Shown here one piece after another: positions 20,315 to 22,922 of a stretch of 64,000 nucleotides of DNA. A program made the position numbers and the translations under genes. The stretch covers positions 70,313 to 134,312 of the forward strand of contig DATNPZ010000001.1 of assembly GCA_036702965.1 (NCBI GenBank), read 5' to 3'. The first letter of the stretch is position 1. Every line of letters begins with the position of its first letter. The notes under the pieces are model-generated. The model was not told where the DNA came from, made no database searches, and saw only the letters and a program-made list of their open reading frames with translations. This DNA comes from Drouetiella sp. GTDB taxonomy: Bacteria > Cyanobacteriota > Vampirovibrionia > Obscuribacterales > Obscuribacteraceae.

Positions 20315-20347
20315 TGACAAGAAAACGGGCACCATTTCTGGTGCCCG
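20315..20347 (-). terminator. Rho-independent terminator after the 20370..20615 gene
   Basis: The minus strand reads CGGGCACC-agaaat-GGTGCCCG followed by TTTTCTTGTC. Confidence 0.65.
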
Positions 20348-20369: not shown

Positions 20370-20615
20370 TTAAGCGGCTTGCAACTGAACGTCGTAGATC
20401 AGTCTCACGAAATCATATTCAACGCGAATGGATACTGTATTTTCAGTTGCGAATTCCAGTCTGACGCGACCTAGAGTGCTTGTGCTGTATTCGCTCCAGT
20501 GTTCGGGAACGGAGACGATCACATTTTCTGGACCCCACTCTTCAACGTATGCCTTCAATACCTGACACAATTTGTCTTCGTCTTTAGGATCCTGAAACAT
20601 GCTCATTAAGTCCAC
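20370..20615 (-). CDS. Small hypothetical protein
   Basis: 81-aa ORF followed by an intrinsic terminator. No motif was recognised. Confidence 0.45.
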   Translation of the reverse strand: MDLMSMFQDPKDEDKLCQVLKAYVEEWGPENVIVSVPEHWSEYSTSTLGRVRLEFATENTVSIRVEYDFVRLIYDVQLQAA

Positions 20616-20748
20616 CTACGCTGAAGTCGCTGCTGCTTTGTGTGGAAATAATATGAAAACAAGCGGTCGGGGACAATTGGTGGAAATCCCACTGACTTCG
20701 TAGTTTTCCCACACCAGGATTAAACGCAAGCCTGTGGCGGTCTTTGGA

Positions 20749-20940
20749 CTACGACTTATAGCCTTTATCTATTCTGCATTCCATCGGCTCGACTTCGCCG
20801 GCGTCGGTATTCACGACTTGCAGCTTTCATCGGTTTGCATTCCATGTCTCGACTGCCCGGCGTCGATATTCTTGGTCACGACTTACAGCTTTTATCTGTT
20901 TTGCATTCCATCTGTTCGACCTGGATCGTCGTGTGATGGA
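20749..20940. repeat. Tandem array, 62-65 bp unit, 3 copies, seeded from the czcD-like 3' coding end plus stop
   Basis: ACGACTT starts at 20751, 20813 and 20878. The copy at 20876-20940 encodes TIQVEQMECKTDKSCKS plus TGA on the minus strand. Confidence 0.8.
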
Positions 20941-21805
20941 GGTCGAAATCGTCGTTGAGGATCTTCGTCACGGCTTTCAATACATCCTCTGATGGAACGC
21001 GGCTGTCGATGAGGATATGTCCAGACATGGAATCTAAACCTGCAGTGATAGTCCACACATGGATGTCGTGCACGTCGACTACGCCTTCGACTCCCGTGAT
21101 TGCCTTGCGTAAATTGGCCAGGTCAATGCGCCCAGGAGTTCCTTCCATGAGGATGTTCACGCACTCGGACAGCAAAAGCCAGGTGCGCGGAAGAATCGCA
21201 AATCCAATCAGTCCAGAGATGATCGGGTCGGCGGCATACCACCTGGTGAAGATGATGATTGTGCTGGAGACGATGACACCCAGCGAAGCAAGCGAGTCTC
21301 CGAGAATTTCGAGGTAGGCGGCGCGGACATTTATTGATGCATCTGCGCCCTGCTTAAGCATCTTCAGTGAGGCGAGCTGCATCGCCAGTCCGATGGCAGC
21401 GACGATTAAAACCGGCACGCCATGCACCTCTGGGGGATTGCTGATACGTCGATAAGCCTCCCAGACGATGAAGAGCGACAATCCGACCAGCGCTAGTGCG
21501 TTGAAAAATCCCGCCAGGATCTCACTGCGATAATAACCATAGGTTTTTCCTGGAGTTGCGGGTTTGCTCGAAAACCAGACAGCAAGCAATCCAAGGATTA
21601 ACGCAGCAACGTCGCTGAGCATGTGACCGGCGTCAGCGAACATTGCTAACGACCCTGTCAGGTAGCCGGTTATGACCTCTAAAACCATGAATGCCGCGGT
21701 TAAACCAAGGACTTTGAGCATTCCCTTTTTGCTCTCGTTGCGCACGTCGCCGTGGCTATGACCAGCACCATGACTGTGAGCACCTGAACCGTGACTATGT
21801 ACCAT
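20876..21805 (-). CDS. czcD: Cation diffusion facilitator (CDF) divalent-metal exporter
   Basis: It has a His-rich N-terminus (MVHSHGSGAHSHGAGHSHGD), six TM segments, and CDF motifs GSLAMFADAGHMLSD and HDIHVWTITAG. The ATG at 21805 overlaps the stop of the upstream metzincin gene by 11 nt. The ORF track extends to 21847. Confidence 0.85.
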   Translation of the reverse strand: MVHSHGSGAHSHGAGHSHGDVRNESKKGMLKVLGLTAAFMVLEVITGYLTGSLAMFADAGHMLSDVAALILGLLAVWFSSKPATPGKTYGYYRSEILAGFFNALALVGLSLFIVWEAYRRISNPPEVHGVPVLIVAAIGLAMQLASLKMLKQGADASINVRAAYLEILGDSLASLGVIVSSTIIIFTRWYAADPIISGLIGFAILPRTWLLLSECVNILMEGTPGRIDLANLRKAITGVEGVVDVHDIHVWTITAGLDSMSGHILIDSRVPSEDVLKAVTKILNDDFDLHHTTIQVEQMECKTDKSCKS

Positions 21806-22922
21806 CAGGCACCGCCGATTCGGCGTGGGTGGCAGCCGAGGGAGCATAGAGGCGCGTTATGGTGTGCGCATCGCGTTCGGTTAAATTGCGCCATTTGTCG
21901 GCGAGCAACGTCGAGTAAAACATTGCGTCATCAGGATTGGTTGTGTGACCGGTCAGACCCAGAGCGTGTCCAATCTCATGGAGAGAAATCATGCGTATGC
22001 GATTAGGCGTGATAGAAATACCGGGCATAAGCGGTACTGTGCAAAATTGAATCGTGCAGTGAACGATTCCGGCGCTATTGCTGGATAGGCGGGCTTCGCC
22101 AGCTTCGGCTCTGTTGGCTAATTTGGCCGGGTTATTGGTCCACGAAACTTCTACATCAGACTGTGCTGCTGCTGGAACGAACTTGAAACTGAGTTCGCCG
22201 CCAGAAGCCGCCGACCAATCCTTGAAAGACTGCTGCACGATCTCAGCGTATTTCGGTTGAAACCCAGGCACGCCGACACCCGCACGCATGTAGACCTTAA
22301 TCGGCAAACGTTCGCTCGGCCAGCGCATGGTGCCCTGACGTGTAACGTCGCCCAGATAGTCTTTAGGAGAAGGATTGGAAGGCGCCGTCATCCCAAGGGT
22401 GCGGACAGTGCTCGTTGTTTCCGCAGAGAACTCCTTTTGAAGCCCCTGGACGAGACTGCTGATTTTCGGTGCGTCTTTGCTTGTGGGAAAGCGTGTTAGA
22501 AAGCTCTTGTAGATTTTTATCGCCTCATCAACATTTCCGGATGATTGGTAGAGTCCACCGAGACTCAACCATCCGGTTTCAAGCGATGGCTTCAGCCTGA
22601 GAGCTTGATTGAGTTGGTCGATGGCATCAGGTGTGTCTCCAAGCTTAGCTAGAGCGAGAGCATAGTTGTGATGCGCTTCGGCGAAATCTGGAGCGATAGC
22701 TATTGCCTGTTTCAACTTTTCGGCAGCTTCCTGGTTGCGATTCGCGCGCAGCAGATTCGTGCCCTCGGTCAAGAATGGACCTGCCTCAAAATAGGAGCGC
22801 GGGACAGGTTTTCCATCCATCATGTAATGTTCGCCAGTCTGCGCGAAGGCACCACCCGTGATTGCGACGGATAGAAGTAACATCAGATTCGCGATGGAGA
22901 TTTTGCCGAGGGAAGAGTTCAT
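21795..22922 (-). CDS. Secreted TPR - metzincin (matrixin-like) zinc metalloprotease, paralogue of 7467..9242
   Basis: 375 aa with a signal peptide, TPR repeats and HEIGHALGLTGH plus AMF. MRWPSERLPIKVYMRAG aligns with FRWTKEKLPIKVYVQNA of the paralogue. Confidence 0.75.
   Translation of the reverse strand: MNSSLGKISIANLMLLLSVAITGGAFAQTGEHYMMDGKPVPRSYFEAGPFLTEGTNLLRANRNQEAAEKLKQAIAIAPDFAEAHHNYALALAKLGDTPDAIDQLNQALRLKPSLETGWLSLGGLYQSSGNVDEAIKIYKSFLTRFPTSKDAPKISSLVQGLQKEFSAETTSTVRTLGMTAPSNPSPKDYLGDVTRQGTMRWPSERLPIKVYMRAGVGVPGFQPKYAEIVQQSFKDWSAASGGELSFKFVPAAAQSDVEVSWTNNPAKLANRAEAGEARLSSNSAGIVHCTIQFCTVPLMPGISITPNRIRMISLHEIGHALGLTGHTTNPDDAMFYSTLLADKWRNLTERDAHTITRLYAPSAATHAESAVPDGT

Follow-up and report, generated by a model that had tools for sequence, protein, structure and literature searches.

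A three-copy repeat behind a Drouetiella cation exporter gene, probably a decayed tandem duplication of the gene's own end

The repeat at positions 20749–20940 of the window (the whole 64,000-nt stretch analysed, C7:70313–134312 of the assembly) is real: on the minus strand, the sense strand of the gene concerned, it comprises three head-to-tail copies of the 3′ end of a CDF exporter gene, with a period of 61–66 nt. The array is probably a fossil minisatellite, a local tandem duplication that arose in one Obscuribacterales lineage, has since decayed and has no function of its own. A segment of about 62–66 nt, made up of the last ~14 codons and stop of the exporter gene and about 20 nt of adjoining sequence, would have been duplicated head-to-tail twice in the lineage of a single Obscuribacterales species, adding 127 nt, probably in two steps and likely through replication slippage or unequal recombination. 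The first copy, still joined to the gene and ending at its own stop, would leave the protein unchanged; the two extra copies, lying in the spacer before the promoter-like block of the next gene, would be harmless and would have drifted by point changes and indels. They most likely survive because neither the protein nor the neighbour's promoter was changed. The array's own weight is small, the exporter protein being the same and the added DNA seemingly inert; what it offers is a clear polarised case, in which a gene's own end appears as the starting point of an array and not the reverse.

The repeat, its core and its spacers

An earlier, sequence-only reading had placed three units of ~64 bp at 20876–20940, 20811–20875 and 20749–20810 (minus strand). 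Global pairwise alignment of these units gave 51/70, 48/67 and 48/68 identical columns (71–73%), with z = 7.9–8.3 (1000 shuffles per pair). The units hold, and the reading's own suggestion of how it might fail, that they align no better than random, is answered by z of about 8. The shared ACGACTT..., TGCATTCCAT and TCGAC blocks that it described were recovered by a repeat search, at spacings of 61–66 nt, and the middle and outer copies do begin with TCA (TGA) and CTA (TAG), respectively. The coding copy translates to ...TIQVEQMECKTDKSCKS-TGA. In gene sense, the sequence straight after the exporter stop reads GTCGAGAC-ATGGAATGCAAAC-CGATGAAAGCTGCAAGTCGTGA, then ...GTCGAGCCGATGGAATGCAGAATAGATAAAGGCTATAAGTCGTAG, constituting two repetitions. 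The last 40 nt of the gene matched its own downstream 260 nt with a score of 50, a comparison in which 0/3360 permuted gene/flank pairs reached 30 or more. The array was absent from the calls of TRF run with a minimum score of 30, because its copies are too diverged. It nevertheless has what defines a minisatellite, or local tandem duplication: at least two head-to-tail units of about 10–100 bp with similarity beyond chance, a unit derived from local sequence, and a single-copy ancestral state. The parts of the array, all on the minus strand, are as follows.

20921–20940, minus: HHTTIQ coding stretch, the 5′ part of the unit as first delimited; z 0.16 and 1.86 against the inter-core spacers
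20876–20920, minus: core copy c (coding), GTCGAACAG...AAGTCGTGA; codons VEQMECKTDKSCKS plus TGA; tail ancestral judging by homologues
20854–20875, minus: spacer S1, 22 nt (CCAAGAATATCGACGCCGGGCA), separating cores c and b; significantly similar to S2 alone
20811–20853, minus: core copy b, 43 nt, non-coding; ATGGAATGCA and AAGTCGTGA retained; 1-nt deletion, tail frame broken
20794–20810, minus: spacer S2, 17 nt (ATACCGACGCCGGCGAA), separating cores b and a; aligns to S1
20749–20793, minus: core copy a, 45 nt, non-coding; would read MECRIDKGYKS-TAG; 86% ungapped match over 43 nt to copy c

The part that is demonstrably triplicated is only a 45-nt core covering the final 14 codons and the stop (GTCGAA...TGA), with a pairwise identity of 73–84% and indels. 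Spacers S1 and S2 resembled one another (z 4.7), but had no significant match to the coding sequence that precedes the core (z 0.2 and 1.9) or to the 3′ flank that follows the last copy (z −0.4 and 0.75). The unit had been read as the last 17 codons plus TGA; 14 codons plus the stop are borne out, and 17 is an upper estimate (z 0.2 and 1.9). Its description as the longest unit among stop-anchored arrays stands within the window but not genome-wide, where TRF arrays spanning 3′ ends reach a period of 76 nt. The three short, diverged copies differ from one another in a star-like pattern, with copy c closest to its centre. No recognisable direct repeat was found as microhomology at the duplication junctions, which are too diverged and whose spacers have no significant match to either flank.

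The assembly is a metagenome-assembled draft (16 contigs, 4.26 Mb, 75% complete), and such drafts can prompt the thought that mis-assembled reads made false tandem copies. That the array is such an artefact has next to no probability. The copies differ from one another by 16–27%, and so are not collapsed or expanded copies of one sequence, and an independent Logan contig (run SRR12844117) is identical over 420 nt that include the whole array. This contig is the sole other assembly of the locus and has the same copy number.

The exporter tail and the origin of the copies

The repeat begins at the end of the following gene.

20876–21805, minus: gene for a CDF metal exporter (ZitB/CzcD-like); ATG at 21805, 309 aa; stop TGA at 20876–20878

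The longest open reading frame begins at 21847 (20876–21847, 323 aa), although the ATG at 21805 is the likeliest start, and the 309-aa product was also called on the Logan contig. The protein is a cation diffusion facilitator, with both the membrane and the C-terminal ZT_dimer domains above curated cut-offs (Pfam Cation_efflux PF01545, 1e-44, 153 bits, cutoff 26.6; ZT_dimer PF16916, 1e-10, 41.9 bits, cutoff 26.7); NCBIfam TIGR01297 CDF scored 270 bits (cutoff 82), and the ZitB equivalog of NCBIfam 259 bits, under its cutoff of 408. Among solved structures, ZnT8 and other SLC30 transporters come closest.

Which came first, the gene's tail or the array, was decided by comparison of C-termini. 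The protein ends in ...HHTTIQVEQMECKTDKSCKS-TGA. Four congeners (80–83% protein identity) end in ...TIQVEQL[EVA]CKGT[GS]ESC[SR]A, and other genera have variants such as QAECKAPASESCRT, QVECKGTDRCGGESRH and AVRCSKLSDPCHG. Among the best 120 database homologues, 105 had a recognisable C-terminal motif, and about 95 of these 105 carried the tail TIQVEQxxC-x(3-8)-C. Such breadth shows that the Cys...Cys tail is ancestral, and its conservation in about 95/105 homologues therefore makes the coding copy the source of the array. The opposite order, in which the array is older and the exporter frame lost its stop and ran into it, so that the ECKTDKSCKS tail is repeat-derived, draws on a sole point: the Pfam ZT_dimer match stops at residue 312 of the 323-aa frame, short of the tail. 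The sequence-only reading had itself raised this possibility, should orthologues lack the tail; with the Cys-x(3-8)-Cys present after TIQVEQ in the congeners, in other genera and in most motif-bearing homologues, and with 12 related loci having no downstream repeat, extension into a pre-existing repeat is refuted by the orthologues and is very improbable. The gene tail was copied downstream, as that reading held: the tail is ancestral, and all 12 orthologous loci (three congeners and nine further loci) have one tail copy each.

In an alignment with three congeners, the two extra copies appear as a clean 127-nt insertion in the window, between the exporter stop and the promoter-like block. The spacer from exporter to next gene is accordingly 269 nt (142 + 127). 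The nine further loci, fetched using the 78-aa product of the next gene as a handle, encode an identical 78-aa neighbour, have the exporter upstream in each case, and have spacers of 133–159 nt with no tail repeat; the tail-versus-spacer score was 8–16 in these loci and 56 in the window. Tail traits peculiar to the window's lineage (ATGGAATGCA, the shorter Cys spacing and AAGTCGT) are common to all three copies, so the duplications should be younger than the split from the sampled congeners. They would also be old enough for the 16–27% divergence among copies to have built up. The nearest other protein is 84% identical (the best among 5.8 billion searched).

Decay of the non-coding copies is visible in detail. 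Copy b has lost 1 nt and with it the frame of the tail; in copy a, the second Cys codon has changed from TGT to TAT (Tyr) and the stop from TGA to TAG. Taken together with the absence of the copies from relatives, this decay suggests that the array is neutral.

Two further observations concern the exporter's end. Exporters of this clade have a conserved Cys-x(3-8)-Cys tail directly after the ZT_dimer motif TIQVE, and this tail may form an extra C-terminal metal site; the C-x5-C version in the window (CKTDKSC; 20876–20911, minus) is the most divergent in a genus where C-x6-C (CKGTGESC) is found. Read-through of the stop codon, which would add 36 residues (PRISTPGSRDMECKPMKAASREYRRRRSRADGMQNR), was judged meaningless, since TAA, TAG or TGA ends the gene at this same point in relatives.

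The spacer, the next gene and the search for a function

Downstream of the array lie the following features, again on the minus strand.

20607–20748, minus: ancestral 142-nt spacer from exporter to next gene, from the congener alignment; holds the conserved block and a small hairpin (GTGGGAnnnCCAC)
about 20648–20714, minus: promoter-like block conserved across genera; −35/−10-like pair, promoter-like match at 20676–20648
20370–20606, minus: 78-aa gene (MSMFQDPKDEDKLCQVLKAYVEEWGPENV...), downstream of the exporter
20326–20347, minus: intrinsic-terminator-like hairpin and T-run after the 78-aa gene; the sole gene-sense terminator-like site here

The block at about 20648–20714 (GGGAAnAnTACGAAGTCAGTGGGAnnnCCACCAATTGTCCC ... 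TTTTCATAnTAT) is also present in the nine further loci and was left intact by the insertion. It contains a hairpin, GTGG-GAnnn-CCAC, the stem of which differs among relatives (TGGG/CCCA, GTGAG/CTCAC). Rfam gave no match for the block, which may be a promoter with an operator, or a leader RNA. Congeners with only 80–84% identity in the CDF gene have the 78-aa protein (MSMFQDPKDEDKLCQVLKAYVEEWGPENVIVSVPEHWSEYSTSTLGRVRLEFATENTVSIRVEYDFVRLIYDVQLQAA) at 100% identity, and the exact protein sequence occurs in 132 index blocks of a public collection, in many assemblies. This identity across congeners, in its usual place just behind the CDF gene, implies extreme purifying selection; neither Pfam nor NCBIfam gave a match for the protein. 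It is commonly, but not invariably, paired with the exporter: in one assembly (Logan SRR7877889 contig, 1–937) the 78-aa gene has no CDF gene upstream and is abutted by a 50-aa ORF. Upstream of the exporter, a TPR-metzincin gene (21795–22922, Peptidase_M10 7.6e-10) shares 11 nt (21795–21805) with the start of the CDF gene, and the order of metzincin, CDF and 78-aa genes, with the single terminator at 20326–20347, suggests one operon.

The position of the array, directly upstream of a conserved promoter-like block, invites a functional account, in which the copies serve as repeated binding sites, as an insulator or spacer, or as an RNA element. Such a cis-element would tune exporter read-through into the 78-aa gene, or that gene's promoter, and the 10-nt block ATGGAATGCA, unchanged in all three copies at a spacing of 61–66 nt (about six helical turns), is of the kind that it would employ. 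One intact 10-mer in three copies of 73–84% identity would, however, be about what chance allows. The array is moreover missing at 12/12 related loci, even though conservation there is high in both the neighbouring gene and the block upstream of it. Searches for structure agreed: the fold of the array RNA was unremarkable (z −1.04), single units gave folds all different from each other (z −2.0, 0.1 and 0.5), and an Rfam scan of the array at E≤10 returned no match. No gene-sense intrinsic terminator was found inside the array, the one hairpin match there being on the opposite strand. The array is thus neither an intrinsic terminator nor a structured RNA element (riboswitch, attenuator or sRNA). 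Nor does the unit occur at any other place in the genome, blastn-short of the array against the whole 4.26-Mb assembly having returned only self-matches and chance 14–16-mers; it is not a dispersed extragenic repeat (REP/BIME, MITE or MIRU). A functional cis-element is accordingly a distinctly unlikely reading, and a decayed duplication with no function of its own is preferred.

Coding potential in the array was also considered. Small peptides from copies a and b were rejected, there being no visible ribosome-binding site for either. On the plus strand, a 74-aa antisense ORF (20734–20958) is open through all three copies. The repeat accounts for it, relatives, which lack the insertion, have no equivalent, and it almost certainly does not represent a gene.

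Tandem arrays at gene ends across the genome and in relatives

The exporter array was set against all tandem arrays of the assembly, using a gene set of 3380 long ORFs, a call that is crude but symmetric with respect to gene starts and ends. TRF found 838 array loci, 659 of them with a period of at least 15 nt. For the latter class, counts observed and expected under random placement were as follows.

Arrays spanning a 3′ end: 98 observed, 33 expected
Arrays spanning a 5′ end: 15 observed, 35 expected
Intergenic arrays: 133 observed, 46 expected
Genic arrays: 404 observed, 521 expected

Over the whole genome, about 100 arrays straddle gene 3′ ends, the exporter array being one such, and 15–21 straddle 5′ ends. 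The excess of 3′ over 5′ ends is real, and held in a TRF-free test: the last 40 nt recurred within 260 nt downstream in 69/3360 genes (null 1), against 9 in the mirror test at gene 5′ ends (null 2). Fourteen of the 69 tail-duplicated genes, the exporter included, had no TRF call at score 40, so event counts based on TRF are underestimates. Diverged or two-copy tail duplications missed by TRF include C4:807381-808607(-), C1:311845-315990(+) and C4:1037931-1039052(+). The genic arrays concealed no pile-up close to ORF starts.

The sequence-only reading had treated stop-anchoring as a phenomenon in its own right, and correctly observed that it is not limited to one unit size (stop-spanning arrays have periods of 15–76 nt). 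The phenomenon itself does not survive the genome-wide counts. Among TRF arrays spanning 3′ ends, the position of the stop within the first unit is uniform (14, 23, 17, 18 and 25 per fifth of the period); in convergent gaps with a single array, 63 stop-spanning arrays were observed, compared with 76.9 from uniformly placed seeds; and the same bias is seen in relatives. Stop-anchoring is therefore survival plus geometry rather than mechanism, and nothing specific to stop codons is needed. Short intergenic gaps and random placement of seeds would set where the stop falls, and arrays would be removed where they upset a coding frame, a gene start or a promoter; selection that protects gene starts and promoters would give the excess of 3′ over 5′ ends. 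For claims of a stop-codon mechanism in this genome, the 98 against 15, the uniform stop position and the lack of an excess in convergent gaps provide a null model. Reading frame shows a similar imprint: the period is divisible by three in 90% of genic arrays, 37% of spanning arrays and 43% of intergenic arrays, and the genic excess is the signature, described also for Borg repeats, of selection on a frame-blind process.

Density nonetheless varies strongly with the type of gap, from 1.45 arrays per kb in convergent gaps and 0.41–0.50 per kb in tandem gaps to 0.10 per kb in divergent gaps (~14-fold under convergent), and the density of array starts is highest 0–20 nt past stops. These figures, together with a convergent-gap density about 4x that of pooled relatives and a short GC hairpin with a T-run that relatives have right after the exporter stop, would fit a mutational hot spot, by which the DNA just behind genes in this lineage is prone to tandem duplication and does not merely preserve it better. 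Terminator hairpins, convergent transcription or transcription–replication conflict, and topological stress or supercoiling are candidate causes. Were this so, the roughly 100 gene-tail arrays would be its footprint and not the survivors of a uniform process. Against it stand the uniform stop position, the lack of a stop-spanning excess within convergent gaps, and the lack of any sign of a hairpin-defined junction at the exporter array; in addition, the ordering of gap types is the same in relatives, and selection at promoters and starts predicts that ordering too. Selection alone may or may not explain the ~14-fold contrast between convergent and divergent gaps, but a hot spot is on present figures unlikely, and survival plus geometry is the reading carried forward.

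Among known systems, the closest are bacterial minisatellites or VNTRs, tandem repeats of 10–100 bp in intergenic DNA such as the MIRU-VNTR loci of Mycobacterium tuberculosis. The exporter array resembles them in its head-to-tail units of a few tens of bases, placed in a spacer between co-oriented genes where they touch the end of the upstream gene, and in the slippage or unequal recombination presumed to have formed it. MIRUs form a family of related units scattered over many loci, with copy number that varies among strains; the exporter unit, in contrast, is unique to its locus, comes from the gene's own tail and, at 73–84% identity, is too diverged to be slipping still. In microhomology-mediated tandem duplication, a short stretch of DNA is copied next to itself and the array can grow from there, so that units are local sequence. 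The exporter units, likewise copied from local sequence with the gene end included, differ in that the defining junction microhomology is unrecognisable, copies and junctions having diverged.

Borg genomes also contain many locally unique arrays of tandem direct repeats each, nearly perfect and recently formed, with unit lengths almost always divisible by three in genes and in 14–38% of cases between them (Schoelmerich et al. 2023, PMC9879509). This genome is similar in its division between genic (90%) and non-genic (37–43%) periods. The exporter array, unlike Borg repeats, is old and decayed (core 73–84%, indels, TRF-negative), and the density in this genome (0.15/kb) falls within the range of its relatives (0.05–0.17/kb), with no counterpart to the contrast between Borg and host. 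A survey of 5374 prokaryotes describes, in the part available, tandem repeats as rarer in coding sequence and commoner upstream of starts and downstream of stops (PMC12418385); the exporter array is one diverged example of the latter. Here the contrasts are 98 against 15 between ends and 1.45 against 0.10/kb between gap types, whereas the same part of the survey reports no 3′/5′ or gap-type contrast.

Relatives place the genome within a wider pattern. A sample of 80 kb each from two relatives had shown ~4-fold fewer arrays and had raised the idea of a uniquely repeat-rich genome; that idea was dropped when 1.04 Mb from six relatives overlapped it. Total array density is 0.149 loci/kb here and 0.054–0.167/kb in the six relatives, and only non-genic arrays are denser here (0.06/kb, compared with 0.008–0.044/kb). 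In the pooled relatives, 10 arrays span 3′ ends as against 2 at 5′ ends, and densities per kb are 0.34 in convergent, 0.24 in tandem and 0.05 in divergent gaps. The array pattern in this genome is thus a quantitative extreme of something general, and not a new phenomenon.
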